A stretch of 64,000 bases of DNA from Squalus acanthias. Taxonomy: Eukaryota. A program made the position numbers and the translations under genes. A model generated the notes under the pieces. The model was not told the origin of the DNA. It worked only from the letters and a program-made list of their open reading frames with translations, and made no database searches. The stretch is taken from positions 139,316,001 through 139,380,000 of the forward strand of contig CM059431.1 of assembly GCA_030390025.1 (NCBI GenBank), given 5' to 3'. Below are positions 9-49,712 of the stretch, in pieces (the first letter of the stretch is position 1; every line of letters starts with the position of its first letter).

Positions 9-2530
9 CTATATGCCCCTCATAATTTTGTACACCTCAATCAGGTCCCCCCTCAGCCAACTCTGCTCTAAGGAGAACATCCCCACCCTGCCCAGTCTCT
101 CATCATAACTGAAGCGCTCCAGCCCAGGTAACATCCTGGTGAATCTCCTCTGCACCCTCTCCAATGCAATCACATCCTTCCTATCGAGTGGCAACCAGAA
201 CTGCACACAATATTCCAGCTGTGGCCTAATCAGCGTTTTGTACAGCTCCATCATAACCTCCCTGCTCTTATATTCTATGCCTCGGCTAATGAAGGCAAGT
301 ATCCCATATGCCTTTTTAAACAACTTATCTAACTGACTTGCTGCCTTCAGGGATCTATGTACATGCACACCAAGGTCCCTCTGATCCTTTGTCCTTCCTA
401 TGTTCCTACCATTCATTCTGTATTCCCTTGCCTTGTTAGTCCGCCGAAAATGCATCACCTCACACTTTTCAGGGTTAAATTCCATTTGCCACTCTTCTGC
501 CCATCTAATCAACCCGTCTATATCGTCCTGTAGCCTGAGGCTTCCCTCCTCGCTATTTATCACTTCACCAATTTTCGTGTCATCTGCGAACTTACTGATC
601 ATACCTCCTATATTCATATCTAAATCATTAATGTACACTACAAACAGCAAAGGACCCAGCACCGATCCCTGCGGTACGCCACTGGACACAGGCTTCCAGT
701 CACAAAAGCAACCTTCGACCATCACCCTCCGCATCCTGCCACTAAGCCAATTTTGGATCCAATTTGCCAAGGTGCCCTGGAACCCATGGGCTCTTTCCTT
801 CTTGACCAGTCTCCCATGCGGGACTTTGACGAAAGCCTTACTGAAGTCCATGTAGACCACATCAGCTGCACTACCCTCATCCACACACCTAGTCACCTCC
901 TCGAAAAATTCAATCAAATTGGTCAGACATGATCTCCCCCTGACAACGCCATGCTGACTATCCTTGTTTGATCCTTGCCTCTCCAAGTGGAGACTAATTC
1001 TGTCCCTCAGAATGTTTTCCAATAATTTCCCTAGCACTATTGTTAGGCACACTGGCCTGTAATTCCCTGGTTTATCCCTACTACCCTTCTTGAATAATTG
1101 TACTACGTTAGCTGTGCTCCAGTCCTCTGGCACCTCCCCTGTGGCCAGAGAGTTTATGAAAATTTGTGTCAGAGCCCCTGCAATCTCTTCCCTTGCCTCA
1201 CACAGCAGCCTGGGATATATCTCGTCTGGGCCTGGGGATTTATCCACTTTTGAGCCCGCTAAAACCGCTAGTATCTCCTCCCTCTCAATACTAATTTGTT
1301 CACGTATATCACAATCCCCCTGCCTGATTTCAATGCCTAAATCGTCCTTCTCCATAGTGAACACAGATGCAAAATATTCATTTAGAACCTCACCTACATC
1401 TTCCGACTCTACACACAGATTGCCTCTTTGGTCCCTAATGGGCCCTACTCTTACCCTGGTTATCCTCTTGCCCTTAATATACTTGTAAAACACCTTGGGA
1501 TTTTCCTTTCTTTTGCCTGCCAGTGTTTTTTCATGCTCCCTCTTCGCTCTCCTAATTTCATTTTAAGTACCCCGCTGCACTTTCTATACTCCTCTAGGGC
1601 TTCCACTGTTTTTAGTCCTTTGTATCAGGCAAAAGCCTCCGTTTTTTCCTAATCCATTCTTGTATATCCCTTGACATCCAGGGTTCACTTGGCTTGTTGT
1701 TCCCAACCATGACCTTTACGGGAGCATGTTGGCGTTGTACTCACTCTATTTCCTTTCTGAAAGACTCCCACTGCTCTGATGTGGATTTCCTGCAAGTAGC
1801 TGATCCCAGTCCACTTTGGCCAGATCCTGCCTTATGATATTACAATCGGCCTTCCCCCAATTTAGAACCTTTATTTCCGTCCATCTTTGTCCTTTTCCAT
1901 GACAACCTTAAATCTCGCCGAATTACGCTCACTCTCACCAAAATGCTCTCCTACTGTCACTTCGACCACTTGCCCGGCTGCATTCCCTAGAATTAGGTCC
2001 AGTACCGCCCCCTCTCTTGTAGGACATTCTATATGCTGGCTCAAAAAGCTCTCTTGGATTCACTTTAACAATTCCGCACCCTCTAAGCCTTTCACACCCT
2101 GACTATCCCACTTAATATTGGGGAAGTTGAAATCCCCTAATAATATTACCCTATTATTTCGACACTTCTCTGAGAATTGCCTACATATCTGTTCCTCTAT
2201 CTCCCCTGACTATTTGGGGGCCTATAGTACACTCCCAGCAAAGTGCTTGCCTCCTTTTTGTTTTTAAGTTCTACCCATATGGCCTCATTAGAGGAACCTG
2301 CTAAGATATCATCCCTCCTTACAGCAGTAATTGACTCCTTGATTAATATTGCGACACGTCCTCCTCTTTTACGCCCCCCTTTGTCTCGCCTGAAGATTCT
2401 ATACCCCGGAATATTGAGCTAGCTGTCCTGCCCCTCCCTCAACCATGTCTCTGTGATAGCAACAATATCATACTCCCATGTGTTCATCAACAGCTTCACT
2501 TCGTCTGCCTTACTCGCAAGACTCCTTGCA
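9..2530 (-). pseudogene. CR1 ORF2 (APE endonuclease-RT), disrupted
   Basis: 494-aa RT fragment at 9-1493; upstream endonuclease/linker region broken by stops and frameshifts. Confidence 0.9.
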
Positions 2531-2696: not shown

Positions 2697-3633
2697 TTAA
2701 ACAGTACTAGCAAACCTCCCCGCAAGGATGTTGTTCCCATTCCGGTTCGGGTGCAACCCGTCCGACTTGTACAGGTCCCACCTTCCCCAGAAGCAGACCC
2801 AGTGATCCAGGAAACTAAAGCCCTCCCTCCTGCACCAACTCTTTAGCCACGCACTCATCTGCTCTATCGTCCTATTCCTATACTCACTCGCACGTGTCAC
2901 CGGGAGTAATCCAGAGATTACAACATTTGAGGTATTGCTTTTTAATCTGCCACCTAGCTCCCTAAATACTTGTAGCAGGACCTCATCCCTCTTTCTACCC
3001 ATGTCGTTGGTACCAATGTGAACCACAACCTCTGACGGTTCGCCCTCCCCCTTCAGAATGCCCTGCAGCCGTTCAGTGACATCCTGGACCCTGGCACCAG
3101 GGACGCAACATACCATCCTGGAGTCACGTCTGCGGCCACATAAACGTCTATCTGTTCCCCTTACGATAGAATCCCCTGTCACTATTGCTCTCCCACTCTT
3201 TTTCCTCCCCTCTTGTGCAGCTGAGCCACTCGTAGTGCCACAGACTTGGCTCCTGCTGCATTCCCCTGAGTAACCATCTCCCCCCGCAGTATCCAAAAAG
3301 GAAAATCTGTTTGAGAGGAAGACGTACGCAGAGGACTCCTGCACTACCTTCCCAGTTATTTTACTCTCTCTGGCGGTCACCCATTCCCTGTCGGCCTGTG
3401 CACTCTTTACCTGCAATGTGAACCATCTTGTTAAACGTGCTATCCACGAAGATCTCAGCTTCGCGGATGCTCCACAGTGACTCCAGCCCCAGCTCCAGCT
3501 CTGAAACACGGATTTCGAGTAGCTGCAGCTGGAGACACTTCCTGCACATGTGTTCGCCCTGGACACCTAAAGTTTCGCTGAATTCCAACATAGCATTGGA
3601 GGAGCACTCCACGCTGCCGAGCTGCCCTGCCAT
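2697..3633 (-). pseudogene. CR1 ORF1 (zinc-finger/coiled-coil plus SGNH esterase), frameshifted
   Basis: ORF 3361-3633 has ECSSNAM...HMCRKC and a leucine coiled coil. ORF 2697-3566 has GDSIVR, HIGTND and DGLHPN esterase motifs. The frames switch near 3430. Confidence 0.88.
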
Positions 3634-4239: not shown

Positions 4240-4301
4240 CATGTTGCAGAGGGAGCGGTCCCTACGGAATGCTGAAAGGGGAGCCAAGGGGAAGATGCAT
4301 T

Positions 4302-5353
4302 TAACACTACTGATGGTGACCATTCTCCAACATTACTGGTGGTGATCGTGAATTAACATTACTGTTGGTGACCCTATTCTAACTGAACTTATTGTGACCC
4401 TACTCTGTCATTGCTGTTGGTGACCCTACATCAACATTATTGGTGGTGAAACTACTACAACATTAATGGTGTTAACCCCACTCTGTTATTATTGGTGTTG
4501 AGCCAACTCTAACATTACTGATGGTGTTCCTACTCTAACATTACTGGTGTTCGCTCTACTCTAACATTACTTTTGGTGATCCTACTCTAATATTATTGGT
4601 GGTGACCCTATTCTAATATTACCAGTGGTGACCCTACTCTAACATTACTGGTGGTGACCCTACTCTAACGTTACTGATGGTGAAACTACTCTATCATTAC
4701 TGGTGGTGACCCTACTCTAACATTACTGTTGTTGACACCACTCTAATATTATTGGCGGTGATCCTACTCTAACATTATTGGTAATGACTCCAATCTAACG
4801 TTACTAGTTGCGAAACTATCTAACAATACTTGTGGTGTCCCTGGTTTAACATTACTCTTACTGACCCTACTCTACCACAACTGAATGTGACCCTACTCTA
4901 CCATTCCAAGTGGTGACCCTACTTTAACATTACTGGTGATGACTCTATGATAACGTTACTGATGGTGATCCTACAGTAACATAAATGGTAGTGATCCTTC
5001 TGTAACATTACTGGTGATGCCCCACTCTAACATTACTGGTGGCTTACTTTACTCTAACATTACTGCTGGTAACTCTACTCTAACATTACTGAATGTGTCA
5101 CTATTCGAACATTATTGGTGGTGACTCTACTCTAACCTTACTGTTGTTTACCCTGCTCTAACATAACTGGTGGTAACCCTACTCTATCGTTACTGGTGTT
5201 GAAACTACTCTAACATTACTGTTGGTGAACCTGGTCGAACATTACTGGTCGTGACCCTACTCTATCATTACTGGTGGTGATTCTACTCTGACATTAATGC
5301 CGGTGACCCTACACTGACATTACTGGTGGTGACTCTGCTCTGACTTTAATGGC
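4302..5353. repeat. 26-bp minisatellite (consensus CTACTCTAACATTACTGGTGGTGACC), degenerate
   Basis: Visible 26-bp periodicity; same unit as 30050-31630. Confidence 0.92.
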
Positions 5354-5432
5354 TGTAGGCTTCGCAAAATCCCCCAGAAACTCGAACAGAGCCCTAAAGG
5401 GAGTGATTTTTGGACTTTTCATACAAACTTGG
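5354..5432 (+). repeat. Truncated 5' LTR (first 79 bp), fused directly to pol
   Basis: TGTAGGCTTCGCAAAATCC...AAACTTGG equals the start of the 3' LTR; pol codons (AFVQENLAAFATHKHDCG) follow at once. Confidence 0.93.
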
Positions 5433-8400
5433 CATTTGTGCAGGAAAACCTCGCAGCATTTGCCACTCACAAGCACGACTGTGGGAGGGTAACCGGGGTC
5501 GAGGTTAGTGTACTTGGGGACCCCATGAACCGCCCACAAAAGCAGTATAACTTCCCCAGGGAAGCTTAGACAGACTTGGAAACGGCTTTGACTTCTGTAG
5601 TCAAAAAGGGGATATTGAGACCTATAGTTACCCACGTGAACTCCCCAATGTGGCCGGTTAGAAAACCAGAGAAATCCTGGAGGGCCACAGTAGACTATCG
5701 AGTACTCAACCGAAACATCCCCGCCTGTGCCCCCACGGTTGCAGCCGTAGCCGACCTCATTGGAAGTATCCCGGCATCTGCGACCACCTTTACAGTGCTG
5801 GATATTTCCAACGGGTTCTGGTCCATCCCTCTAAGGAGAGAGGATCAGTACAAGTTCGCCTTTACATTTAAAGGCCAACAGTCCACATGGAACTGTCTGC
5901 CCCAGGGCTACCACAACAGCCCAAGCATGTTTCCCCAATGTATGGTGAATTGCTTGAAGGGCTTCAGCAGGCCCCATCAGCTGGTCCAGTATGTGGACGG
6001 CCTACTCCTTTTTACCGATGAGGGAGAGGAACATGGTCCCCTTCTGGCAGAACTGCTGGAACTGCTCAGGCAAGAGGGCTTTACGGTAAACCCCAAGAAG
6101 GCACAGATTGGCCAGCGGGAAGTCAAATTCCTGGGCCTGGCTGTGCGAGCAGGGGAGAGGGCCATTGACAAAGCTAGAAGGGAAGCAGATCAGGAGTTAC
6201 CAGCCCCCAACACAGTTACAGGGGTAAGGTCTTTTCTAGGGCTAACTGGGTACTGCAGAGATTTCATTGAGGATGACGCAGCCACAGCAGCCCCTCTGCT
6301 CCGACTCCTACACAAGGGAGTGGAGCGGGTTTGGGATGAGGGTTGCGAGGCTGCCTTTGTGAAACTCAAGAGAGATCTGCAAACCGCACCGGCTCTAGGG
6401 GCCATTGATGGAGGGGTAGAGTTTTTCCTGGAGGTAGCAGCCAGTGGGGACAGTCTGAGTATAGTGCTGCTCCAAGAGAGGCATGGCAAGCTGAGACCAG
6501 TGGTTTACTTCTCCAGAATACTCACTGATGTGGAGAGGAGCTACTCCAACTGTGAGAGGCACCTCCTAGCCACTCACTGGGCTGTGAAAAGATCATTGAT
6601 CTTCACAGGCACCTCTCCCATCACACTCCTCACTCACCACACGCCCACCCAGATGCTCTTGGATGGGAGAATTAAAGATGGGACAGTGAGCAGTGCCCGC
6701 ATTGCACGCTGGACCCTGCTTCTCTCACAAATGGATCTGAGGGCCAAAGCTCGCAGCAAACATGATTTACTCAGGGACAGCCCACCGGAGTTCCGTTGAA
6801 GGGGTATGGGAAGTCAACAAAGGTTTGCGAGCTGGGATACACCCCACAGGCCGCGAGATCTACGTGGACGGTTCAAGCACAGTATCAGCTGGCAAACGAC
6901 CCACAGGGTTTGGGATTTATGACCCAGAGGCAGGCATTGCTCTGGCAATCAAGCTCCCCAGCACCATGAGTGCCCAGCAGGCTGAACTGTCTGCGGTGGT
7001 GTATGTAGTCACACACCCCAAGGAATTCCCTACCCCATACACGATTTGCTCGGACAGCATGTTCACATGCAATTCGTGTACAGAGTACCTGGCCATCTGG
7101 TCCCGTCGTGGATAAACCTCCGCCGATGGGAGACCCCTGGCCATCAAGCCTCTGTTGGAGAAAATCCTGAGGGCAGTAGGGGAGGAAGGTAGGGTATACA
7201 TGCAAAAGGTGAAGGCCCATTCCAAGGTAAAGCCCCGCGCAGAGGGCAATCACCAAGCCGACATGCTGGCCAAAGAGGACGCCAGTACAGGCACGTTGTG
7301 GGATCCATATGGATCAAACCCGGTAGCAGCAATAAGAGGCAGAGGAGGGACCCAAGGGAGTGCAGGGGTAGCATTGACCCCGGACTTAAAGACGGTCCAG
7401 GCACGGGATCCCATCCTAAAAACAGTCCTGGAAACGCTGGCTACAGGGGAGAAGATAGAGGGCCCTTACGGCGCAGCAGCCATAACCCGCAAAGAAGGGA
7501 TGCTGTTCAGTGGGGAACAATGGGTAGTGCCGCAGCAGCACCGAAGGGAATTCCTCCAACTGACCCATGAGGGTCCAGGAGCGGTGCTTCCCGGGACTGA
7601 GACCACCTGGCAGCAGGTGGAACAGGCAGGATGGTGGCCAGGACTGAGGGAGGATGTCCGCGAGTTCTGTGCAGGCTGTCTGGTGTGTGCTGCTAACAAC
7701 CCTGAACCCCAGAAAAGGAAGGTATCTATGGGACACATCAGGAGGGTAGAGGGACCATGGCAGTCGATCCAGGTCGACTACATCGGGCCCCTACCCACCG
7801 CTCAGGGAGGCTACAAATACTGCCTAGTCCTGGTGGATGTGTTCTCAAAGTGGGTGGAAGCTTTTCCATGTCGAACAGCTACCGCTTTGGGTACAGCCAG
7901 GATCCTGGTCAGGGAAGTGTTCTCACGATGGGGGCTCCCACAGTATGTGGAGTCAGACCAGGGGAGTCACTTTACTGGGCAGGTCATGCAAGAGACCCTC
8001 AGGGTACTCGGCATAGAAGGGAAATGGCACTTCGCCCACAACCCACAGTCATCAGTGATTGTGGAGCGTTTAAACCGTACCATCAAAGAAAGGCTGCGAA
8101 AGGAGATGGGAGACTCACCCAAAAAGTGGGTAGAAGCCTTACTGTTGGTCCTAATGGGGATCCGGGCCAGCCAGTCAAAAAGCACGGGGTATTCCCCACA
8201 CCAGCTCATGACTGGCAGGATTATGCGGACCCCCACCCATGTGCTAGCCCCGGTGCTCACGGAAGGGCAGCTCAGGCAAGTGAACCGGGACAGATTCGTC
8301 AGGAATCTGTTGGACCACCTTAAACAGGTCCACTGACAGGCTGCGAGTAACATGGGAAAACAGCATCGGAGTAACCGATTGCTGCTGGAACCCCGCAAGC

Positions 8401-8685
8401 ACCACGAGTGGAAAGGTTGGAGATCAGGTCATGGTGTGAAATTTTGCTCGGGTAGGGAGTTTCGAACCATTGTACATGGGGCCCGACAACATTGTAGACA
8501 AGGCAAGCCCCATGGTTTATGCCATAAAGATGCCCCGCCGTACAAAGTGGTTTCTCATCAAATAATGCAAACTGTTTAAACCTAAAAGGGAACAGCCGCC
8601 AAAGCTGGATGGCCCCAAGTTAGAAATCCTCAGCCAGCCGCAGCTGTGGCAGACGCACAAGCTGCAGCGGGACGGACAGTGTTTT
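5433..8685 (+). pseudogene. pol: Retroviral pol: RT, tether (degenerate RNase H), RNase H, integrase
   Basis: RT motifs NSPMWPVRKPEKSWRATVDYR, LDISNGFWSIP, LPQGYHNSP, YVDG (YVDD mutated). Tether FFLEVAAS...PVVYFSR...CERHLLA. RNase H IYVDGS...SAQQAELSA...SDS...KVKAHS...GNHQADMLA. Integrase CAGCLVC, QVDYIGP, SDQGSHF, VERLNRTIK. Stops at 5567, 7113 and 8334; frameshifts near 6755 and 8415. Confidence 0.95.
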
Positions 8686-10690
8686 AACATAAGAACATAA
8701 GAAATAGGAGCAGGAGTAGGCCAATCGGCCCCTCGAGCCTGCTCCGCCATTCAATAAGATCATGGCTGATCTGAACCTAACCGCCAATCTACTTTCTATC
8801 ACAGAACCATCTCCTGCATCTAACAGAATTGCACACACGAAATAGGAGCAGAATCAGGCGACACGGTCCCTGGGCCCGCTCCACTACCCACAGGGCCATG
8901 ACCGGATCCGAACCTAGACTCATGTCCAAATTCCTGCCCGCTCCCCGTAACCCTTAATGCCCTTTACTTCTAGGAAACTGTCTATTTCTGTTTTAAATTT
9001 ATTTAATGATGTAGCTTCTACAGCTTTTTGTGGCAGCATATTCCATGGACCTACCACCCACTGAGTGAAGTAGTTCCTCCTCATCTCAGTTTTGAAAGAG
9101 CAGCCCCTTATTCTAAGACTATGTCCCCTAGTTCTAGTCTCACCCGTCATCGGGAACATCCTCCCCGCATCCACCCGATCCAACCCCTTCACAATCTTAT
9201 ATGTTTCAATAAGATCGCCTCTCATTCTTCTGAACTCCAATGAGTAGAGTCCCAATCTACCCAACCTCTCCTCATATGACCACCCCCTCATCCCCGGGAT
9301 TAATCGAGTGAACCTTTTTTGCACTGCCTCGAGAGCAAGGATGTCTTTCCTTAAGTAAGGACACCAAAACTGTATGCAGTATTCCAGGTGCGGTCTCACC
9401 AATACCTTGTACAACTGATGCAATACCTCCCTATTTTTATATTCTATCCCCCTAGCAATGAAAGCCAACATTCCATTTGCCTTCTTAATCACTTGCTGCA
9501 CCTGCATACTAACCTTTTGAGTTTCGTGCACCAGGACCCCCAGATCCCTTTGCACTTCAGTACTCTCCAGTTTCTTGCCATTAAGATAATAAGTTGCTCT
9601 AGGATTTTCCTGCCAAAGTGCATCACCTCACACTTTCCAGTGTTGTATTCCATCTGCCAAATCTCTGCCCACTTACTTAGCCTGTCTATGTCCCCTTGCA
9701 GGTTTTTTATGTCCTCCTCACTCACTACTTTCCCTCCCATCTTTGTATCATCTGCAAATTTTGATATGTTACACTTGGTCCCTTCCTCCAAATCGTTAAT
9801 ATAGATTGTAAAGAGTTGGGGACCCAGCACTGACCCCTGTGGAACACCACTAGTTACTGATTGCCAGTCTGAGAATGAACCATTTATCCCAACTCTTTGC
9901 TTTCTGTTAGATAGCCAATCCTCTATCCATGCCAGAATATTACCCCCAATCCCGTGATTTTTTACCTTAAGCAATAATCTTTTGTGTGGCACCTTGTCAA
10001 ATGCCTTTTGGAAGTCTAAATACACTACGTCCACTGGTTCCCCTTTATCCACTCTATATGTTACTTCCTCAAAGAACTCCAGCAAATTTGTCAAACATGA
10101 CTTCCCCTTCGTAAAACCATGCTGACTTTGTCCTATTAAATTATGATTATCCAAATGTCCTGTTACTGTTTCCTTAATAATGGACTCCAAAATTTTACCT
10201 ACCACAGATGTTAGGCTAACCGGTCTATAGTTACCAGCCTTCTGTCTACTGCCCTTTTTAAATAAGGGTGTTACATTAGCAGTTTTCCAGTCTGCCGGGA
10301 CCTTAGCGGAATCCAGGGAGTTTTGAAAAATTATTACCAATGCATCTACAATCCCTACCGCCACTTCCTTCAAGACTCTAGGATGTAAGCCATCAGGTCC
10401 AGGTGATTTATCCGCCTTGAGTCCCATTATTTTACCGAGTACCACTTCCTTAGTGATTTTGATCGTGTTTAGCTCCTCTCCCCCTATAGCCCCCTGTTTG
10501 TCCAGTGTTGGGATATTCTTAGTGTCCTCTACTGTAAAGACTGATACAAAATATTCATTCAGTGTTTTTGCCATCTCCATATTTCCCACCATTAATTTCC
10601 CGGTCTCATCCTCTAAGGGACCAACATTTACTTTAGCCACCCTTTTTCTTTTTATATAACTATAAAAACTCTTACTATCTGTTTTTATAT
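8686..10690 (-). mobile_element. 5'-truncated CR1 LINE inserted into the ERV near the pol 3' end
   Basis: RT ORFs 9489-10690 and 8920-9555 (one frameshift); (CTTATGTT)n tail read as AACATAAGAACATAAG at 8686. Confidence 0.95.
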
Positions 10691-11235
10691 GTTGTCTCAC
10701 AGGAGAGGTCACTCCACCGATTATGTATTTAGAGGGTCCCACCCAAAGAGGGTTACAACCCGAAAAAGAGCGCCCAAGAGCAGGGAGCGTTCTAAAGTTG
10801 GGGATTACCAGCCTACAGCCTCCAACAGTGAGGGTTTCACAGGAGAGGTAGTACTGGAAGAAGAAGAGAGAGTAGGGTCCCCCGCCTGCAGCCTCAGGCT
10901 GGGAGGAGCCCACAGATATGAACGGTGGCGCTGCAGCCACACAAAAGGGGGTAGTGTGCTGCAGCACAGGACGCAGCTGGGATGTTAAGATACCCCCAGC
11001 GGTTTTGAGGAAGGCCTTCTGGGTCCGGCGGTACAGGCCGCACTACACCCAGGTGTACAAGCCATCCAGAGGCCACATAAGGCAGAGACTAAACAGGATT
11101 TAACCTGGCCGTCGGTTTTAAGTAATTGCAGTTTTGGTGGTTATGGTTATCACTAGTTTAGTTGTTTGTAGAGTTTTTTAAGTTTAAGGGCTTGATTAAT
11201 TATCCAGCCAGAGAACCTTTCTGGGACATGGATAT

Positions 11236-11258
11236 ATGTTTTGTGTGCGCCCCTACAG
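11236..11258 (+). promoter_or_regulatory. Putative env splice acceptor
   Basis: TTTTGTGTGCGCCCCTACAG ends at 11258, just upstream of the env ATG at 11272. Confidence 0.55.
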
Positions 11259-11271
11259 AAAGGACTTCGGG

Positions 11272-13560
11272 ATGACAAGGTTTCTGCTCCTGCTCGCCCT
11301 GGTAGGGGTGAGCATCGGTGACCGAGGTGACGTGGAGGACTCCCACATCTATGCGTGCTCAGGAGTGAGAGCACCAGTCGTCACCACAGGTGTTGGCGAG
11401 CGGGAAGTGGAGGAGCTCGCCATCTACTTCCACGAGGGAAGGTGGAAGGGTGGCTGGGGTCCAACTCTACTAAATACTCCAACCAGCCCGGGTTCACGTA
11501 CGGGGAGGCCTCCCTCCCATGCCCCAGAATACAGGTCGTTGCCACAAGGGTCAGTGTCACGGAGGGGAAGCGTGTGTGCCTTACCTGTAAGGGACGAATT
11601 CCCTTGAATAGGTGGTGGTGGCTCAGGAAGCTGAGCAGGGACGCAGGGGTCCATACAGCCGACTGGGAAAGATTAGGGAACGACACCCACCAGACAATCA
11701 CAGGGACCCAAGGAGGAGTTAGTGTTTGTTGGGATAAGTGGTGGGTGTCGGAACAGGGAGTCTATGTTTGTATGTGGGGATCAGAGGAAGTCTGCCCCAC
11801 AGGGTTATCCATCATTATCTCCAGCCAATGGAAAGATGCCGGGGAGGGGATAGGGTGGGATTCTAGCCTGCATGGGTGCGTGGTCCCACACATTCCGCTC
11901 CCAGTTAATGCCACTGAACTCGTGGCACACACCCGAAAGCCCCTACCCACGACCCAGGTACCGAAAACCCTGGAAGAAAAGTGCCCTACCACCACCAAGG
12001 GACCAGGGAATGGGTTAGTCCTAGCACCAAACGAAAATGTACTATACCAGGGGGTACACTATGCAGTAGCTTCAGTAATATTAAACCTTACCGAGGTATA
12101 CTTACCTGAGTGGTGTCCTAAGGAGACGGAGCAACTGTACCAGGCCCTGCTAAAGGAAATGTTTCGGAAATTTTACGAATTTGATTTTGCCAATATACTC
12201 AAAGTAGAGCTATACAGAATACACCCTGATAACCCTATGGGCATGGGTAGACAAAGAAGGGGAGCCTGGAATGATGTCTTCACTGCCTACAGTACAGGGT
12301 CCTCTGTAATAAATAGCCTGGATGACATGGAATTACAGACACAGATAAATGGTTTAAAAACCCAGTTAAGAAAGATCCTGAAGAATGGGAACACAGTGGT
12401 AGGCTCAGAGCTACATGAGGACCAAGCTATGACGGTTCATTTAAAGCAAATTATTGCAGAATTGGAAAGGCATGCCAAAACAGTAAATGCACTCATACGG
12501 GAGGATAGGAATGCATCGGATCAGGCTGCACAGAATGAGGTGTGTGTGCTGTACGGGGCATGGTTGCTGGGCGAGGGCCCTAGCAACCTGGAGGATTTAA
12601 AGCAACTTTAGTCCCCTCCTGGATCAGCAACAAGCACCTTGCAGCCCTCCACCCGTTTAGTAATTCGCTGACCCATGCCAATTTCGACTAGCCTCTGAAG
12701 CCTACCCTGTCCCAATAGATTGTGGGCGTTCAAATCACACTACCATGGGGATAGTAGTGAGAATGACGGTCATGAGTGGGACAGCCCGACCCGTACCGGT
12801 ATACAGGGTGGAGAACATTGGAGTCATTCAAGGGGGTGCATACATCCGTTTTACAGCGGTCCCACCTTAGGTCATAAAGTGGGAGCACGCCATGACAGGT
12901 ACTGACCTCTCCGGGTGCCGGAGCCGGGGTTCACACATAATACTGTGTCCCCAGCACTTGAACGCCTATTCCAAACCACAGTGCGGGTTTAAAGCTGCTG
13001 GCGCACAACCTATCAATTGTACCATGGAGGTGATGGCACACGGCCATGTTTCCCCACAGGTAGCATATATAGGTGGTGGGACATATTGTGTCACCACAGG
13101 TGCGTCCCACTACCAGCATGGACACTTCTGGTGTCCGGTAAGTGACAGCAGTTTCTGCTTTAAACCCGAGGCAGAAGTTCAAGTGGCCCAGGAACGGATT
13201 GTCCCCATACCTGAACCCTCCACTGTTCACCTCACTGTAACAGAAAACATCACCAACCAGCAAAAGTATGTGACTTACTTTGGATATAAAATTCCCCCTC
13301 TACCCGAACATCTTACCATCCTACTTAAAGCTGTAGAGATTTCACAAAAACATTTCCACACCCTGGAACAGAAAACAGTTGAAATAGGGGCAGAGATTTT
13401 GGATATAGTAGTTCCACCCTGGTGGGATATTTTCGAGAATATAGAGGTGCCGTCCTGGATCAGGATGGCTTCCCATCTTTTGGTGGTCTGCCAGCTCGGG
13501 ATAGTTCTCTACCTGCTGTATCAAAGTGCAGGGGAAGGGACGGGGAGCTCCGCTCCAGAC
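11272..13560 (+). pseudogene. env: Envelope glycoprotein: signal peptide, Ig-like domain, P/T stalk, class I F-like fusion protein, TM
   Basis: Signal MTRFLLLLALVGVSIG at 11272. Frameshift near 11460 into ORF 11355-12611, which holds furin site RQRR (12249-12260) and heptads. Stop/frameshift region about 12609-12870. Cys-rich ORF from 12892 (DLSGCRSRGSHIILCP), then PPWWDIF and the hydrophobic HLLVVCQLGIVLYLLY. Confidence 0.88.
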
Positions 13561-13898
13561 ACGAAGGGTCTTGGGAAGTGCATCAAAATAAAGGCTATGG
13601 CCAGGGATGGAACGAACATTGAATTTCGTCTTTTAATTAAAAAAAAATTGTATGTGTGTTGTGTCATTTTTACGAGGTGTATGATGTGTTTTTTTTCCAA
13701 ACTGTGCAGGGGTGTCGGACCCTCTCCGTGCTTGGATGTGAAATAAAGATTGATTCTTACCTGTATGTCCCTGAAACACCACTTTCAAAAGGGGAATTAA
13801 TGTTTGGGTTTTTAGTTTAGGTAATACAGCGGAAGGTTGGTTTTCGGGGATCGGAAATTTTGCTCACCTGTTAATGATACTAAGTCAGTGTTAGTATC

Positions 13899-13909
13899 AA
13901 AGTGGGGGA
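13899..13909 (+). other. Polypurine tract
   Basis: AAAGTGGGGGA directly before the TG that starts the 3' LTR. Confidence 0.8.
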
Positions 13910-15001
13910 TGTGGGCTTCGCAAAATCCCCCAGAAACTCGAACAGAGCCCTAAAGGGAGTGATTTTTGGACTTTTCATACAAACTTGGGATGATGGGACC
14001 TCAGTGAAGTGATTTGATGTAAAAACCTAAGACCACAAGAAGAAAACCTTGAGGAAACTCACTTTTCGAATCTTACTGGGGAAAGACGCCTTCACAGACA
14101 CACAGGCTGCAGAGGGGCGTGGCCAGGCAGTGCAGTAAACTGTCGACAAAACCAAAAAAAAACCTCACAAACACATTCAAATATGGATCCCCAGGGGCAA
14201 ACAAGATGCTGGTAATCTAAAAACGATTCAATGACAATATAATTTCGATCACACAGTTTCATAGCCATTATCCCATCCAAAAAACAATCAATCAGGTATG
14301 CAGAGAACCGATTTAAAAGCCCGCCAAACAGAAGGACAATAGAGTGAAGATTTGGCGCGTAGATAAGGCGATGTTTAAATCGGAAAGCGATTAACACTTA
14401 GCAAAAACCATCGGAGCTGGTCAGCCCGCCAAAAACTAGACAAAGGACATTTGCATTCAAAAAGGAATTCGTTTTAGTAAGGGGTTTTGAGCGCGAAAAA
14501 AGAGACAGTATAATTTGAATGCCTGTGCCATAATCTCGCTCTCTTTGGACTGACTGGCGACGCGAACACAGCTCTCTCCCTGCTCCAGCAAAACTTACCA
14601 CAAGCCACGAGGAAGAAAACCAGCACGCAAGAAGAAACCATAAGGGTCTTCCGGAGTCCTTTTAAACAAAAAGACTCTAATATCCAGTCAAGGACTCGTT
14701 GGTGAGCATTATCCCTGATCTCCTGAAACCAAAAACCTAGCCAGATAGTGGGATATTTGGGAGGGATAAGGTTTTGTTTGATATATTGTAATTTCCCTCG
14801 CTTGTACCGTGCGTTCCCCGAATCTGTGTTTAAGTAGTAAGTGTGTTTTCAAGTTTGTTACCTTTTTCTTTTAATAAAGTAAATTTCTTTCATCAGAACC
14901 TGTTTACTGCAATTTTGTTCACAACCCCTAAATAAGCCCAAAGTCTAGGAACCGGAGGGGTGTTGGTCGATTCGAACCGCTCACTTAAGATACCCCTTAC
15001 A
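13910..15001 (+). repeat. 3' LTR (about 1.09 kb)
   Basis: Starts TGTGGG after the PPT, AATAAA at 14873-14878, ends CCCCTTACA (imperfect inverted terminus). The right end is inferred; no TSD confirms it. Confidence 0.75.
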
Positions 15002-16800
15002 GTTATTAAAGGTTGTGTCCCAACACAGCGATTTAGTGAGGAAACTAGAGATAGTCCAAACGGAACAGTCGCACAGCACAGCAGGTGAGCACATGGTGGC
15101 GGTCACAACAAATCAAGGCCAGCAAAGAGCAGAAGTTCCTGGGTATAAATTCACAGCGAGATGTGGCCTGGACCCAGCCATTACATCACGATCAAGTCTT
15201 CAGCAAGGCGGCAACAGTCTTCTGCAAAAAGAACAGTCAACCTTTGAACACTCCTCAGATTGCAGAAAGCCTACTTCCGTCCAATCCTGCCCAGACTTCA
15301 TAGAGCCTGGTGCGCCCTGAGTCAGACACATATCAAAGGGCTGCAAATTATCGAAAACTGAGCTAAAAAGACAATGTGTTGTGCCCCATGCTAAATTTAC
15401 TCAAACAGTCTGCACATCTATGGAATCCAAACCCTGGAAATAAAGTTCATTAAACTCCACCAGAGATAATTGCAGAGAGAAAAAAGGCAGGATTATTTTG
15501 TATATTTGCAACTCTGCACTGTGGGCGTGCAGCAGGCCGGGGCGATTTGCCAATATTCAGTCAAAGAAATGATCCTGCTAGACAGAATCAATCGCACTTA
15601 ATCCAAACAACCATGAAACCAGATTGACACATTCCAGTGTATCTGATATAAAAACATGTTGTTTAAAAATGGGAACAAACAATGGACGTGACTGTAAATC
15701 TCCCAAAATTACTAATAAAGCTGTCTCTCCTTCGTTCTCACTTTCCATTGCCAGCTGGCATCATCCCTGCCAAAGACAACACGGAAAGTATATTCACTGA
15801 AAAAGGACCTGCAGTTGTGCTGACAAACAAGGGGGTATTCAGAGCACGTGATTGAAACAATAAATAAGGGAACTATAATATCGACCAATCGACAACACTG
15901 CAGCATCAACTCAGGACAAGACTCAGGCAATTCCAGACCAGCCCAACCAGAATATCCTTCCTGACTACCATCTGGGGACTGGTGCTAATTTGGAGGAGCT
16001 CCCCGACAGATTGCTCAAGCAACAGCTTGATACAGATTATATTTACAAAGGCAGTCTCCCAGACTACTGCATGTGTTGTGAGAGTACTGGCAGTGTGGAG
16101 TGACCTACTTGATCAGATCTTCAATAATGCACCAGTCAGAGACACGTCTGTAGACGATTGCTTTCACCGATGTAACCACCACACAATCCTTCTATTGACA
16201 AGGCCTGGACTCCACAATGAGAACACTCTCTATTGTGCAGTTCTACCAGTGAGGCAATAGCTAGTAGCCAGATACTGGGCGTGCATAAGGTGTTGTGGGC
16301 CCTTCAAAATCGCAGAATTATATCCCTCGACAATGTCTGATGCCTGACCTATACAATTCTACAATCTACCGGCACTATAATGTAAAAATTCCAACTATGG
16401 GTTTAATTGGGGACAATTAAATAACTTGACAGGAACAAGAGCATTGAAATTGAGAATGAGGCACTAACTTAGTGAAACTACAATTAAACCAAAAACGGCA
16501 AAAGCAGAGTGTTGCAGATCAAGTTAATGTGTTCCACGGCCAAACAATAAGAACTAAGCGTACACTGCCTGCCACATCCATTTATTAATGGGAGTGGCAA
16601 CAGGAGATTATTAAGCAGGGGAGGGTCCAAGACACCCCGGTGATGGAAACAAGGCTTCAGTGTTCGAAGCAGATTCAGCCAAAAGTGAAATTTTAACGAG
16701 CAAACGTGGCTCCCATAAGCATTCAGCCCAGCGTCAAGCCAATGGAGGTCTCCCCACGTGACATTAGGAAGCACTGGAACAAACTGACCACAGAGATAAT
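15002..16800 (+). mobile_element. Possible heavily decayed LTR-retrotransposon integrase region
   Basis: Only faint motifs, e.g. GPFKI (GPY/F-like) near 16297; no long ORF. Confidence 0.25.
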
Positions 16801-16823
16801 GGGTCCTAACAGAACCCTAGTTA

Positions 16824-17420
16824 AGAACATAAGAACATAAGAAATAGGAGCTGGAGTCTGCCATTTGGCCCTTCAATAACATCATGGCTCATCTTCTACG
16901 TCAAGTCCACCTTTCACAATAGTCCCATATTATTTGGTACCCTTAGTATCCAAAAATCCATCTCTGTTCTGAAAATATACTAAACGAAAGAGCATCCACA
17001 TCACTCTGGGGTACATAATTGCAAGGATTCACAACCCTGTGAGTGAAGACATTTCTCCTCATCTCGAACCTAAATGACTGACCCCTTATTCTGAGAGAGT
17101 GACACCTACTTCTAGACTCCCCAGCCAGGGGAAACATCCTCCAAACATTTATCCTGTCAAGCCTCTTAAGAATTGTATACGTTTCAATGAGATTACCTCT
17201 AGGGAATATATGGATAGTCTCCTCAATATCTCCTCATAGGACATTCCCACCCCCTTCCTATCCCAGGAATAAGTCTGGCAGACCATCGTTCCACTCCCTC
17301 TAAGGCAAGTATATGCTTCCTCAGGTAAGGAGACAAAAACTGTACACAATACTCCAGGTGTGGTCTCACCAAGGCCCTCTATATTTACAATAATTTTTCT
17401 TTATCCTACACACCAATCCA
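16824..17420 (-). mobile_element. CR1 3' fragment
   Basis: AAGAACATAAGAACATAAG tail; RT C-terminus fragments (EMRRNVFTHRVV). Confidence 0.9.
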
Positions 17421-19000
17421 TTTAGGTGAACGCAGTAACTGTGTAATTAGAGATAGAGGACAGGGTAATTTAGGGGAACACAGTAACAGTGTAATTAGAG
17501 ACAGAGGGCAGGGTAATTTAGGGGAACACAGTAACTGTGCAATTAGAGATAGAAGAGAGGGTAATTTAGGGGAACACAGCAACTGTGTAATTAGAGATAG
17601 AGGACAGGGTCATTTAGGGGAACACAGTAACTGAGTAATTAGAGATAGAGGACAGGGTCATTTAGGTGAACACAGTAACTGTTTCATTAGAGATAGAGGG
17701 CAGGGTAATTTAGGTAAACACAGTAACTGTGTAATTAGAGATAGCGGTCAGGGTAATTTAGGGGAACATAGTAACTGTGTAATTAGAGATAGAGTACAGG
17801 GTAATTTAGGGGAACACATGAACAGTTTAATTAGATATAATGGACAGTGTAAATTAGGGGAACACAGTAACTGTTTAATTAGTAATAGTGGACAGGGTAA
17901 TTTAGGGGAACACAGTAACAGTTTAATTAGAGATAATGGACAGGGTAAATTAGGGGAACACAATAACTGTTTAATTATAGATAGAGGACAGGGTAATTTA
18001 GGGGAACAAAGTAACAGTTTAATTAGAGATAGAGGACAGGGTAATTTAGGGGAACACAGTAACTGTAATTAGAGATAGAGGACAGGGTAATTTAGGGGAA
18101 CACAGTAACTGTGTAATTAAAGATAGAGGACAGGGTAATTTAGATGAACACAGTAACTCTGTAATTAGAGTTAGACGACAGGGTAATTTAGGGGAACACA
18201 GTAACTCTGTAATTAGAGATAGAGGACAGGGTAATTTAGGGGATCACAGTAACTGTGTAATTAGAGATAGAGGACAGGGTAATTTAGATGAACACAGTAA
18301 CTCTGTAATTAGAGATAGAGGACAGGGTAATTTAGGGGAACACAGTAACTGTGTAATTAGTGATAGAGGACAGGGTAATTTAGGGGAACACAGTAACTGT
18401 GTAATTAGAGATAGAGGACAGGGTCATTTAGGGGAACACAGTAACAGTTAAATTAGAGATAAGGACAGGGTAAATTAGGGGAACACAGTAACTGTGTAAT
18501 TAGCGATAGAGGACAGGGTAGTTTAGGTGAACACAGTAACTGTGTAATTAGAGATAGAGGACAGGATAATTCATGCGAACACAGTAACTGTGTAATTAGA
18601 GATATAGGACAGGGTAATTTAGGGGAACACAGTAACTTTGTAATTAGTGATAGAGGACAGGGTAATTTAGGGGAACACAGTAACTGTGTAATTAGAGATA
18701 GAGGACAGGGTCATTTAGGGGAACACAGTAACTCTGTAATTAGAGATAGAGGACAGGGAAATTTAGGTGAACACAGTAACTGTTTAATTAGAAATAGTGG
18801 ACAGGGTAATTTAGGGGTACACAGTAACTGTGTAATTAGAGATAGAGGACACGGTAATTTAGGGGAACGCAGTAACTCTTTAATTAGTAATAGAGGACAG
18901 GGGAAGTAAGGGGAACATGTTAACTTTTTAATTCGAAATAGAGGACAGGAGAATTATGGGGAATGCTGTAACTGTTTAATTATAAATTGGGACCAGGGGG
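17421..19000. repeat. 48-bp minisatellite (TTTAGGGGAACACAGTAACTGTGTAATTAGAGATAGAGGACAGGGTAA), about 32 copies
   Basis: Clear 48-bp period, e.g. CAGGGTAA at 17461 and 17509. Confidence 0.95.
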
Positions 19001-19665: not shown

Positions 19666-22600
19666 TTTGTTGCCGGTGCCACGTGCTAGCGAGTTGAGGA
19701 ACAGGGAGAGAGTGCAGATAAACACGTGGCTGCAGGGATGGTGTAGGGGGGAGGGTTTCAGTTATGTGGATAATTGGAGCACATTCTGGGGAAGGTGGGA
19801 CCTGTACAAACAGGACGGTTTGCACCTGAACCAGAGGGGCACCAATATCCTGGGAGGGAAATTTGCTACGGCTCTTCGGGGGGGTTTAAACTAATTTGTC
19901 AGGGGGATGGGAAAAAGGGCTGTAGTCCACGAGCCAGTGGTGAGTGTAGGGAGGTACTGAGGAGGGTATCAAGGTCGCAGGAATGTACCGGCAGACAGGA
20001 AGATGGCTTGAAGTGTGTCTACTTCAATGCAAGGAGCATCCGGAATAAGGTAGGAGAACTTGGAGCGTGGATTGGTACTTGGGACTACGATGTGGTGGCC
20101 ATTACGGAGACATGGTTAGAACAGGGACAGGAATGGTTGTTGGAAGTTCCGGGGTATAGATGTTTTAGTAAGAGTAGGGAAGTTGGTAAGAAAGGTGGAG
20201 GAGTAGCATTGTTAATCAAGGATAGTTTAACAGCGGCAGAAAGGCAGTTCGAGGGGGATCTGCCGTCTGAGGTAATATGGGCTGAATTTAGAAATAGGAA
20301 AGGAGCGGACACGTTGTTAGGAGTTTTCTACAGGCCCCCAAATAGTAATAAAGATGTGGAGGAAGAAATTGCAAAGCAGATTATGAATAGGTGTGGAGGT
20401 CACAGAGTAGTTGTCATGGGTGACTTCAACTTTCCAAATATTGATTGGAACCTTTATAGGTCAAACAGTTCGGATGGGATAGTTTTTGCACAGTGTGTGC
20501 AGGAGGGTTTCCTGACACAATATGTGGATAGGCCGACAAGAGGTGGGGCCACGTTGGATTTGGTACTGGGTAATGAACCGGGCCAAGTGTTTGATTTGTA
20601 TGTGGGAGAGCACTTTGGAGATAGTGACCACAATTCGGTAACTTTCACTATTGCAATGGAGAGGGATAGGGCCATACGGCAGGGCAGGGTTTATAATTGG
20701 GGGAGGGGTAATTATGATGCGATTAGGCAAGAATTAGGGAGTATAAGATGGGAACAGAAACTATCAGGGAAAGGCACAAACGAAAAGTGGAGCTTTTTCA
20801 TGGAGCAATTACTGCGTGTCCTTGATAGGTATGTCCCTGTCAGGCAGGGAGGAAATGGCCGAGTGAGAGAACCATGGTTCACAAAAGAGGTTGAATGTCT
20901 AGTCAAGAGGAAAAAGGAAGCGTATGTAAGGATGAGAAAACAAGGTTCAGTTGGGTCGATTGAGGTGTACAAGGTAGCAAGGAATGAGCTAAAAAAAGAG
21001 CTTAGGAGAGCTAGGAGGGGGCATGAGAAGTCCTTGGCGGGTCGGATCAAGAAAAACCCCAAGGCTTTTTACTCTTATGTGAGAAATAAAAGAATGACCA
21101 GGGTGAGGGTAGGGCCGGTCAAGGACAGTAGTGGGAACTTGTGCATGGAGTCAGAAGAGATAGGAGAGGTGATGAATGAATACTTTTCGTCAGTGTTCAC
21201 CGAGGAGAGGGGCCATGTTCTTGAGGATGAGAGTGTGATAAAGGTGGATAGACTGGAGGTGGTAGATGTTCTGAGGGAAGATGTTTTAGCAATTTTGAAG
21301 AACCTGAGGGTCGATAAGTCCCCTGGGCCAGATGGGATATATCCTAGGATTCTTTGGGAGGCAAGGGAGGAGATTGCAGAGCCTCTGGCTTTGATCTTTG
21401 TGTCCTCACTGTCCACGGGGATGGTGCCAGAGGACTGGAGAGTGGCGAATGTTGTTCCTCTCTTCAAGAAAGGAAATAGGAATGACCCTGGTAATTATAG
21501 GCCGGTTAGTCTTACTTCGGTGGTTGGTAAGATAATGGAAAATGTCCTGAGGGATAGGATTTATGACCATTTGGAAAGGGGCAACTTAATCAGGGATAGT
21601 CAACACGGATTCGTGAAGGGTAAGTCTTGCCTAACAAATTTGATTGAATTCTTTGAGGAGGTAACTAAGTGTGTAGATGAAGGTAGAGCAGTTGATGTCG
21701 TATACATGGATTTTAGTAAGGCGTTTGATAAGGTTCCCCATGGTCGTCTCATGAAGAAAGTAAGGAGTTGTGGGATAGAGGGAAATTTGGCCGATTGGAT
21801 AAGTAACTGGCTATCTCATAGAAGGCAGAGGGTGGTGGTGGATGGAACATTTTCGGACTGGAGACCAGTTACCAGCGGTGTGCCACAGGGGTCGGTGCTG
21901 AGTCCTCTGCTGTTTGTGATTTTTATCAATGACTTGGAGGAGGGGACTGAAGGGTGGATCAGTAAATTTGATGATGACACCAAGATTGGTGGAGTAGTGG
22001 ATGAGGTGGAGGGCAGTTGTAGGCTGCAAAGAGACATTGATAGGATGCAGAGCTGGGCCGAAAAATGGCAGATGGAATTTAACCCTGATAAGTGCGAGGT
22101 GATTCATTTTGGTAGGGCAAATTTGAATAAGGATTACAGGGTCAACGGCAGGGTTCTGAGGAACGTGGAGGAGCAGAGGGATCTGGGGGTTCATATCCAC
22201 AGATCTCTGAAGGTTGCCACTCAAGTGGATAGAGCAGTAAAGAAGGCCTATGGTGTGTTGGCGTTTATTAACAGAGGGTTTGAGTTTAAGAACCGTGAGG
22301 TTATGCTGCAACTGTACAGGACCTTGGTGAGACCACATTTGGAATATTGTGTGCAGTTCTGGTCACCTCACTATAGGAAGCACGTAGAAGCATTGGAAAG
22401 AGTGCAAAGGAGATTTACCAGGATGCTGCCTGGTTTGTGGGGGAGGTCTTATGAGGAAAGATTGAGGGAGTTGGGGCTTTTCTCTTTAGAGCGGAGGAGG
22501 ATGAGAGGCGACTTAATAGAGGTTTATAAGATGATGAGGGGGATAGATAGAGTGGATGTTCAGAGACTATTTCCTCGGGTAGAGGCAGCTGTTACAAGGG

Positions 22601-23781: not shown

Positions 23782-24119
23782 TGATGATGACAGTCCAGAT
23801 GTTTATCTTTAAATAATTAACAGATTTCCAACACTGTTATCAAATGATTAAAGTTCTCTGAAATGTATGAATCAGTTTACAATGACATGTCTTTAATTAC
23901 ATTTCTTCTTACTGCAACCTGAATCTCACCATTGCTGCAGGGTGAGCCCTCGCTCATCAGCTCAGTGCTACTTTAAATTGACTGCTTAACAGGCAAAGGC
24001 TAAAGGTTAACATTACTACAATATTAAGATAAACCAATACAGTATAATATTATCAGACTTCAGGAGCGTCTGATTCTCCCTTCCCGTACAGTGCCCTCTG
24101 TCGTAGCATTAGAGTATTT

Positions 24120-49200: not shown

Positions 49201-49712
49201 GGGGTAAAAATTCACTTGGTTGCGCCTCCCGTTAGCGCCTTAAGAGGGCGCTAATGGGGCGTTAAGCCGCTAACGCCCGGGCGCAGCGCTGTTTGCGCCG
49301 CTCGAGAACTTAACTTGAGATTGTGCGGCGGCGCTAAAACTTACCGCTGCGACCACCTGCGCGCGCAGATTGTGACGTCATTCCATGGTGCAACGCCCTT
49401 GGGGTGCCCCGGAGCGGAAATTGAGTGGCGCCCCCTGCCTTACCGCCTGGTGCTTCCAACGACCGGAAGACTGGAACGTTATCAATCGGTGTGGGGCTGG
49501 GGGGGGGCGCTATTTAAAGGGGGCCTCTTCTGTCTTTTTCTGTGGTCGACATTTATGCACCACTCGTTCTGAGAGAGAGAGAGAGATTCGGAGAGAGAGA
49601 GAGAGAGACTTCTACATTGACTCAACGCTTTGTGAGGTAGTTTTGCCTAGTTCATCCTAACTTTGTTGCTACTTTAGTTGCTGTACCTCATTACTTTTCT
49701 GGCAAAGAGAAT

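Follow-up and report, generated by a model that had tools for sequence, protein, structure and literature searches.

When an endogenous retrovirus (ERV) couples a polymerase with two ribonuclease H (RNase H) domains, one of them degenerate, to an envelope (env) gene that recalls the fusion (F) proteins of paramyxoviruses, to which of the deep retroviral lineages does it belong? The question is posed by positions 5354-15001 of a 64,000-nucleotide stretch recorded as Squalus acanthias (GenBank assembly GCA_030390025.1, contig CM059431.1, positions 139,316,001 to 139,380,000, forward strand), the whole of which is called the window here. A preliminary description, made from the letters alone, took the element for a lokiretrovirus that might fill a gap in the host range of that group. 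We arrive at a different answer. The element comes from a family of simple endogenous retroviruses of an elasmobranch, and is a dead copy that has lost part of its interior and received an insertion of a long interspersed nuclear element (LINE). On the evidence of motifs and phylogeny, its polymerase belongs to the canonical retroviruses outside the gamma/epsilon group (class I), probably in the clade of snakehead retrovirus (SnRV), and its env is predicted to encode a furin-cleaved class I fusogen whose core has the paramyxovirus/pneumovirus F fold.

The provirus plan of long terminal repeat (LTR), pol, env, polypurine tract and LTR does span 5354-15001, as the preliminary description had it, with the qualification that the 5' LTR is a stub of only 79 nt, that about 3.4 kb of the interior is deleted and that a LINE lies in the tail of pol. 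Its parts, in window coordinates, are as follows.

5354-5432, plus strand: 5' LTR stub, LTR nucleotides 1-79, fused straight to the reverse transcriptase (RT); 78 of 79 nt equal the 3' LTR
5432-8682, plus strand: pol remnant (RT, tether, RNase H, integrase), 95.4% identical in nucleotides to the pol of an intact copy; from open reading frames (ORFs) and Pfam
5657-6142, plus strand: RT domain (RVT_1, by Pfam), motif B LPQGYHNSP
6332-6730, plus strand: tether, a Gypsy-type RNase H-like domain with the catalytic Asp lost (RT_RNaseH_2, RT_RNaseH; alignment with Gypsy proteins)
6855-7283, plus strand: second, retrovirus-type RNase H (PF00075, by Pfam), interrupted by the in-frame stop at 7113-7115, so that the following ORF holds its C-terminal part
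7527-8045, plus strand: integrase zinc-binding domain (H2C2) and catalytic core (by Pfam)
8683-10689 (approximate), minus strand: 5'-truncated non-LTR retrotransposon (LINE RT; RVT_1, 5e-31) of about 2 kb, its ends set by comparison with an intact copy
11272-13622, plus strand: env, about 784 codons in open copies, broken here and spread over three reading frames
12249-12260, plus strand: furin-type site RQRR, kept as R-x-K/R-R in shark and frog homologues
13465-13518, plus strand: transmembrane anchor of env, from the env sequence
13900-13909, plus strand: polypurine tract, AAGTGGGGGA, immediately 5' of the 3' LTR
13910-15001, plus strand: 3' LTR of 1092 bp, TG...CA, by comparison with an intact copy

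This comparison took as its reference an intact copy of the family, 11,162 bp long and with 1120-bp LTRs that are 98.4% identical. Window 5431-8682 aligns to its pol from the RT onward, and 11112-15001 to its env and 3' LTR; gag and protease are missing from the window copy, the deletion at the 5431/5432 junction having removed them together with the remaining LTR and the primer-binding site (PBS). The 5' stub and the start of the 3' LTR are visible as an 85-nt direct repeat (5351-5435 and 13907-13991). What is left of pol has in-frame stops at 5567-5569, 7113-7115 and 8334-8336, a frameshift near 6741-6799 and the RT active site YVDG, and env has suffered four frameshifts and an in-frame stop (12868-12870). 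The LINE is a secondary insertion into the 3' end of pol, foreign to the provirus. Target-site duplications of 4 bp bound two of two intact copies examined, and none was found at the flanks of the window copy (TGGC versus GTTA), a mismatch that may stem from rearrangement in the 26-nt satellite beside the 5' stub, or from recombination between two copies.

The affinities of the element are best read from its polymerase. A Pfam search of the stop-to-stop plus-strand ORFs between 5570 and 8336 matched RVT_1 (1.8e-30), RT_RNaseH_2 (7e-21), RT_RNaseH (1e-18), RNase_H PF00075 (4e-10), Integrase_H2C2 (2e-13) and rve (5e-15), and all four RT motifs quoted in the preliminary description were located: HKHDCG (5468-5485), NSPMWPVRK (5639-5665), DISNGFWSIP (5801-5830) and LPQGYHNSP (5897-5923). 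Its pairing of a dead RNase H tether with a second, retrovirus-type RNase H was likewise upheld. In alignment with Gypsy proteins the first domain reads VAAS for TDAS and THH for TDH and is without ADALSR; because the catalytic Asp residues kept by Gypsy are lost, it is identified as a tether, while the second RNase H looks intact apart from the stop codon of the window copy. Where Ty3/Gypsy elements have a single active RNase H and PFG in motif B, an inactive first and an additional second RNase H are found here with motif B LPQG, and all 28 dual-RNase-H database matches that show motif B read PQG. Scored against RTs of the Protein Data Bank (PDB), the family's RT reaches 168-174 bits with MLV/XMRV, 148-156 with foamy viruses, 123-128 with Ty3 and about 50 with HIV. 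A maximum-likelihood tree of 31 proteins, rooted on eight Gypsy rows, places the family inside the dual-RNase-H retroviruses (100/100) and outside a 14-row class I clade that holds gamma-like and epsilon-like rows (100/100), in a group, not resolved, that also holds frog lineages and one bird lineage. The nesting of the RT in Gypsy or epsilon clades that the preliminary description had named as fatal to its own reading is thus not seen. The rows were proteins collected during the analysis, without labelled SnRV, foamy, ERV-L or lokiretrovirus sequences, and the tree therefore excludes Gypsy and class I and cannot by itself exclude lokiretroviruses. An env without CX6CC sets the family further apart from the gamma-type members of class I.

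Several lines of evidence point from there to the SnRV clade. In the supplement of Wang & Han (PMC7947760; pages 1 to 300 of 318) the string DISNGFWS occurs in SnRV only, at three places. Identities counted by hand from printed sequences, and approximate, are about 40% to SnRV and 31% to the lokiretrovirus Loki-Str over some 246 RT positions, and about 36% to WDSV and 33% to CoEFV over the first 135 or so. Beyond the family itself, with which one protein at 86% is counted, frogs supply the closest pol proteins (Pyxicephalus 45%, Aquarana 44%, Xenopus tropicalis 41%), followed by one protein at 36% and gamma/epsilon-like proteins at about 31%. SnRV-like elements have been described from Xenopus and Pelophylax (PMC4131045, in part), and the clade as characterised in the accessible part of PMC12193657 comprises SnRV and ERVs of reptiles, birds, amphibians and fish. 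Lineage I of the ERVs of Callorhinchus, the elephant shark, clusters with SnRV (Han 2015, PMC4422223, in part), and the kind is therefore already known in Chondrichthyes. Taken together, the motifs, the hand-counted identities and the nearest relatives make it probable that the family sits in the SnRV clade.

Could it instead be, after all, a lokiretrovirus proper that lives in cartilaginous fishes, and so belong to the lineage that stands as sister to the sampled retroviruses? The RT speaks against it. Every lokiretrovirus RT printed in the supplement carries PLSRWPM and RCPFGY.(N/A)SP(A/S)EF, and the family's RT has neither; LPQG, which it does have, is found in all canonical retroviruses of the printed alignment, among them KoRV, MuLV, FLV, REV, WDSV, Xen-1, SnRV, ZFERV-2, fish foamy-like ERVs and foamy viruses (PMC7947760, in part). 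The pol and env searches returned no ray-finned-fish protein of lokiretrovirus type, though such viruses are reported from at least 120 ray-finned species. The known host range takes in lampreys, ray-finned and lobe-finned fishes, as well as amphibians and reptiles; in the material available from that study none of three orectolobiform sharks was positive, and Callorhinchus was screened and is not marked positive. The combination of a tether with a second RNase H, on which the preliminary description leaned, is common to all retroviruses according to the same source, and so is not diagnostic. In the other direction, lokiretroviruses do occur in frogs, where the nearest relatives of the family live, and the dual RNase H is present, as is, on the model described below, an F-like env fold.

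The window copy is one of many, and what it has lost can be read from its kin. In the 3.71-Gb assembly that holds the window, intact copies measure about 11.2 kb and run LTR (about 1.1 kb), PBS, gag, stop, pol, env, purine tract, LTR; the full plan was seen in three fetched copies, none of which has a 3' ORF or other accessory ORFs. Their gag has 450-509 codons with one CX2CX4HX4C (CCHC) zinc knuckle, and is separated from the in-frame protease by a single stop in three of three copies, an organisation that is orthoretroviral. The pol of some 1420 codons runs through protease (a weak RVP match), RT, tether, RNase H, H2C2 integrase and catalytic core to an SH3-like end. Behind the 5' LTR stands an 18-nt PBS that pairs with the 3' end, CCA included, of the tRNA from a host gene called as tRNA-Arg(TCG) by ARAGORN. 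This gene was located with a pattern built from the complement of the PBS; a pattern based on a tRNA-Arg 5' end had no match. As an observation in its own right, the 3' end of tRNA-Arg(TCG) has 574 matches in the genome at no more than one mismatch, most of them within long tandem arrays, repeating about every 1623 bp, on contigs C26 (about 38.99-42.2 Mb, loci L030-L032) and C23 (L029); the one array unit scanned also carries a tRNA-Ser(GCT) gene. A very large tRNA gene array thus appears to supply the primer of this ERV family.

Abundance, youth and a retained envelope set the tone of the family. At up to two mismatches, conserved 22-mers occur 350 times (env), 157 times (RT) and 2935 times (LTR), which puts the internal copies at several hundred or more and the LTRs far above that; the candidate numbers of a first look (18,679 for RT and 12,503 for env) were discarded as copy numbers in favour of these counts. 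Another family copy, detected by RT and env 22-mers, lies about 150 kb upstream on the same contig (C7:139171527 and C7:139178267). Identity to the RT of the window is 87-100% throughout the 102 RT matches scored. The 66 env matches scored all show 88-100% identity to the copy used as query; 17 of these 66 are without an internal stop, and in 14 a frame of 799 aa or more is open. LTR pairs are 97.8-98.4% identical in the intact copies examined. The ratio of nonsynonymous to synonymous change (dN/dS) between pairs is 0.31 for env (13 copies, 78 pairs; 0.33 in the N-terminal part and 0.30 in the fusion part) and 0.38 for RT (10 copies, 45 pairs), figures drawn from the best-scoring copies and from pairs that share history and are not independent. 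While the family diversified, purifying selection acted on env with the same strength as on RT. Since this selection held while copies reached the hundreds, spread by reinfection, beyond movement within the cell, is favoured.

In sequencing runs labelled as organisms A, B and C, env and LTR are covered far more deeply than the single-copy flank. These runs also hold that flank at near identity (97-100% in B and C at window 15656-16848), by which B and C would be the window's own species or very close relatives. One contig of organism C crosses 15001/15002, but its 30 nt of LTR are not enough for it to be taken as a bridge, and no shared-insertion date is therefore drawn. A run guessed to be RNA (X12) yielded contigs on env and LTR at 95-99% and none on the unique flank, which says nothing on expression either way, and a scan of viral contigs by pol alignment gave 45 pattern stretches with none confirmed. 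In sum, this is a young, abundant, env-retaining ERV family of an elasmobranch.

The envelope protein runs from a signal peptide and an Ig-like N-terminal part through a GPGNGL strand (12000-12023), the RQRR furin site, a long helix and a Cys-rich globular part to a second heptad region, a transmembrane anchor and a short tail. RQRR lies just upstream of the long heptad helix, with a Gly/Ser-rich segment after the cut, and the whole counts 21 Cys, long helices and one transmembrane segment. No CX6CC was found in the window env, and the other features given in the preliminary description (a GPxxGxxL-type start, a furin site, long heptads, a Cys-rich region) were all recovered. The N-terminal 240 or so residues give weak Ig-like signals (Ig_3, E 0.01; V-set, E 0.045), and one shark homologue is named 'Ig-like domain-containing protein' in UniRef. 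Among the env pieces and homologues there was one sub-threshold Pfam match to Baculo_F. When a profile of 44 homologues was compared with PDB sequences, the Env of simian foamy virus (8rm1) came out best, though weakly (E 0.011), the match covering the beta-rich part that contains Cys.

It is in the predicted structure that the kinship of this protein emerges. For AlphaFold2 (AF2) the env core was taken from a family copy with an open frame, as the 569 residues that start shortly before GPGNGL and run to the C-terminus; with a 44-sequence alignment this gave a model with pLDDT 69.5 and pTM 0.58; an earlier model of the full 784-aa env on a five-sequence alignment (pLDDT 29.4) was unusable and was replaced by it. 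Foldseek against the PDB placed F proteins on top, with hPIV3 (1ztm, E 3.2e-11) followed by PIV5, Nipah, Hendra, RSV and hMPV F (E 3e-11 to 1e-8, probability 1.00, 450-550 aligned columns, 9-14% identity), among 230 matches at E<=1e-3. In the BFVD the model matched arli-/lispivirus glycoproteins, F0 proteins and baculovirus F and, among retroviruses, the Envs of WEHV-1 (1.5e-10) and WDSV (3.8e-8) and gp130 of feline foamy virus (8.5e-6). The top BFVD match was A0A384ZVF2 (928 aa). With the domain order and modelled fold of F, and a furin cut upstream of a long heptad repeat, the protein is best described as a putative F-type class I fusogen, and the F-like env of the preliminary description is thus borne out by predicted structure, not by a sequence match to PF00523.

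How new is such an assignment? Foamy virus Env is F-like and has been placed with F-type class I proteins as 'subclass Ib' (PMC11468914, in part). The Envs of the epsilonretroviruses WEHV-1 and WDSV have been called 'distinct' and not classified (PMC9967133; 10.1101/2021.11.05.467493), and as late as 2026 an F-like Env is described, in the text available of 10.1101/2023.10.26.564294, as a lokiretrovirus trait, with the canonical Env as another type. Our literature searches, whose coverage was incomplete, found no paper that calls the Env of the SnRV clade or of epsilonretroviruses F-like.

Several points weigh against the reading of the family as an SnRV-clade retrovirus with an F-type Env, the choice of copies and the shared history of the pairs behind the dN/dS figures being one. 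The fold model is of moderate confidence, with 131 of its 569 residues below pLDDT 50, and PF00523 was matched neither by the window pieces at E<=10 nor by family copies at E<=1, nor by any of 14 homologues. The assignment to the SnRV clade rests on motifs, hand-counted identities and patterns among nearest relatives, with the family's place among the lineages outside class I unresolved in the tree. SnRV itself has a 3' ORF and a 136-residue env tail (PMC12193657, in part), and the family has no such ORF and a tail of about 30. Lastly, the printed Env of Loki-Xtr resembles the family's env by eye, the two sharing GPxxG, RxKR and INxLKTxL in the same order, and also the 'G.(I/V)P' turn after the long helix and the array C-x8/9-C-x11-13-CG(L/F), while the integrase, in the stretch seen, resembles that of lokiretroviruses and shares FSKWVE with Loki-Lca.

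The likeness to Loki-Xtr Env suggests, at the level of sequence pattern, deep homology among retroviral F-type Envs. An Env of this type is not confined to lokiretroviruses, being present in foamy viruses (PMC11468914, in part) and, to judge from the model matches, in WEHV-1, WDSV and feline foamy virus. The family has the tether and second RNase H of a lokiretrovirus, and has neither the RT motifs and identity, nor an env that matches PF00523, nor a host in the reported range. Because of its LPQG-type RT, its lower identity to Loki-Str, the absence of positives among the three sharks and the non-specific nature of both the tether and the F-like Env, membership of the lokiretroviruses is not supported, and we regard it as very improbable. 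The three features that the preliminary description combined as a lokiretrovirus mark (tether, second RNase H and F-like env) each occur in other retroviruses, its nearest relatives are those of frogs and sharks, and the proposed filling of a host gap falls away with the identification, the more so as an SnRV-clade ERV has already been reported in a cartilaginous fish (PMC4422223, in part). The host range of lokiretroviruses is not extended by this locus and should not be so recorded.

A foamy-like ERV of cartilaginous fish (related to Spumaretrovirinae, class III) is a second candidate, to which the 148-156 bits of foamy protease-RT against the family's RT, and the rank of simian foamy Env as best PDB profile match, lend some weight; MLV RT outscores foamy RT in the same comparison, and the hand-counted identity to CoEFV falls below that to SnRV. 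Foamy viruses express pol separately from gag, and here gag and pol share a frame across a single stop. The PBS is that of tRNA-Arg(TCG) and not the tRNA-Lys usual in Spumaretrovirinae, and the Ig-like module is N-terminal and not between the subunits as in foamy Env. The Gag carries a CCHC knuckle, whereas foamy Gag is without this Cys-His box (PMC5210030, in part). The literature does hold a foamy virus endogenous to cartilaginous fish (cited in PMC11468914, in part), and that source also gives foamy Env its F-like character. On balance we consider a foamy-like identity highly unlikely.

It may also be asked whether pol and env have one history at all. A canonical-type RT next to an F-like env that by eye resembles that of Loki-Xtr is what a recombinant would show, in which an SnRV-like gag-pol had captured its env from a lokiretrovirus or a negative-strand RNA virus, and env exchange between retroviral lineages is common (10.1101/2021.11.23.469661, in part). 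The relatives of pol and env, however, share one host distribution of sharks, skates and frogs. There are 51 representative env homologues at E<=1e-3; eight of ten looked up had a taxon, namely the sharks Chiloscyllium, Mustelus, Heterodontus (two) and Scyliorhinus and the frogs Pelodytes, Mantella and Xenopus, and a word-based search adds sawshark and skate. In the frog protein P0007, moreover, a homologous pol runs straight on into an env-like signal peptide and Ig-like start. The shared distribution and the layout of P0007 argue that pol and env have long travelled together, and since they would have done so since before the split between the shark and frog relatives, any capture was ancient and is not a property of the window element. 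A recombinant origin is accordingly held unlikely.

Read as an SnRV-clade retrovirus with an F-type Env, the family would enter and replicate along familiar lines. The env precursor would trimerise and be cut by furin at RQRR, and the N-terminal Ig-like module may bind the receptor. The cut would free the Gly/Ser-rich fusion segment to insert into the target membrane, whereupon the long helix would refold against the second, membrane-proximal heptad and drive fusion, as in F and foamy Env. Reverse transcription would be primed by tRNA-Arg, ribosomes reading through the gag stop would yield Gag-Pro-Pol, and integration would be accompanied by 4-bp duplications.

The host can be judged from a neighbour of the element. 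An intronless B3GALT5-like galactosyltransferase ORF (57300-58232, minus strand) has chondrichthyan proteins as all of its best 34 matches, led by Heptranchias (69%) and Pristiophorus (71%), then Mustelus, Heterodontus, Scyliorhinus and Cetorhinus, with batoids and Callorhinchus next and tetrapods lower. By this gene the host is a cartilaginous fish, as the preliminary description had supposed, and most likely a shark.

What, then, does the family mean for retroviral history? It adds to the poorly known SnRV clade, to which it putatively belongs, a large, young, env-carrying family of an elasmobranch with many open env frames, together with structural evidence, from a model, that the Env of this clade is of the paramyxovirus F type, which would bring F-type Env to four deep retroviral lineages. 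Tentatively, one may go further and suppose that the vertebrate retroviruses that branch early (SnRV clade, epsilon, foamy and loki) have F-type Env in common and probably took it over from their ancestor, the gamma-type Env being a later replacement; we rate this as possible, and doubtful. If it were true, the family would be a young, env-selected and possibly still infectious member of an old stock, fitted with a new N-terminal Ig-like receptor module. With the F-like Envs of foamy viruses, epsilonretroviruses and this family side by side, the envelope type of the first retroviruses becomes testable with natural sequences.

The surroundings of the element are rich in repeats of other kinds. 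A satellite of 26-nt period, with 30 copies in register, occupies 4246-5350 and adjoins the 5' LTR stub, and a second, of 48-nt period, lies 2.3 kb downstream of the element at 17324-17995; a family copy on contig C3696 likewise sits in satellite, with the same repeat on both flanks. LINE copies are found at 12-1562 (minus), 2700-3566 (minus), 19774-22788 (plus), 24028-26486 (plus), 41746-42168 (minus) and 47304-48607 (plus). That at 19774-22788 retains an open ORF2 of 1005 aa with endonuclease and RT, and a GDSL-esterase/OSK-like ORF that looks like an esterase-type ORF1 stands just upstream of a LINE RT on the same strand. A transposase ORF of PIF/Harbinger type (DDE_Tnp_4, E 3e-39; 49641-50870, plus) and a nearby Myb/SANT-like ORF (52360-52965, minus) probably form a Harbinger element with two genes. 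A fragment of a rhodopsin-family seven-transmembrane receptor, a host gene, lies at 28471-28968 (minus).

With lokiretroviruses the family has in common the LTR-gag-pol-env plan, the tether and second RNase H, a furin-cleaved Env that is predicted to be F-like and has no CX6CC, and an integrase that is GIN/CGIN1-like and carries an H2C2 zinc domain. It differs from them in motif B, which in lokiretroviruses is CPFGY with a preceding PLSRWPM and here is LPQG with no PLSRWPM, in an env that is without a PF00523 match and bears the extra N-terminal Ig-like module of about 240 residues, and in having no smc gene. With foamy Env (8RM0/8RM1) and the F proteins of paramyxo- and pneumoviruses its env shares an F2-like strand, the furin site, a long HRA, beta-rich DI/DII with conserved Cys, HRB and a transmembrane segment. 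The receptor module is placed differently in each: N-terminal and Ig-like in this family, where its role is presumed, between the subunits in foamy viruses, and on a separate protein in paramyxoviruses. The epsilonretroviruses (WDSV, WEHV) resemble the family in having gag and pol in one frame across a stop and in predicted Env models that match its F-like model, their Env lacking the gamma-type hallmarks (PMC9967133); epsilon-like rows fall inside the class I clade and the family outside it, and the Envs of WDSV and WEHV are much longer, at 1159-1317 aa.

The closest likeness is to SnRV and its kin. The RT signature LDISNGFWSI...LPQG(F/Y)H.SP...QYVDD is shared by SnRV and the family, the hand-counted RT identity is the highest found, and the provirus is of about 11.2 kb in both; the known hosts of the clade, which include fishes and amphibians (PMC12193657 and PMC4131045, both in part), fit the shark and frog relatives found here. 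Among these kin, lineage I of the Callorhinchus ERVs (CmiERVs) offers the nearest parallel in host: it, too, carries env in the genome of a cartilaginous fish, and a Pol tree groups it with SnRV. As described in the available text of PMC4422223, the CmiERVs amount to three complete or nearly complete insertions and fragments, more than 50 million years old, in a chimaera. The family treated here, compared with them by description only, is one of at least several hundred copies in an elasmobranch, with LTR pairs of 97.8-98.4% identity and many open env genes.

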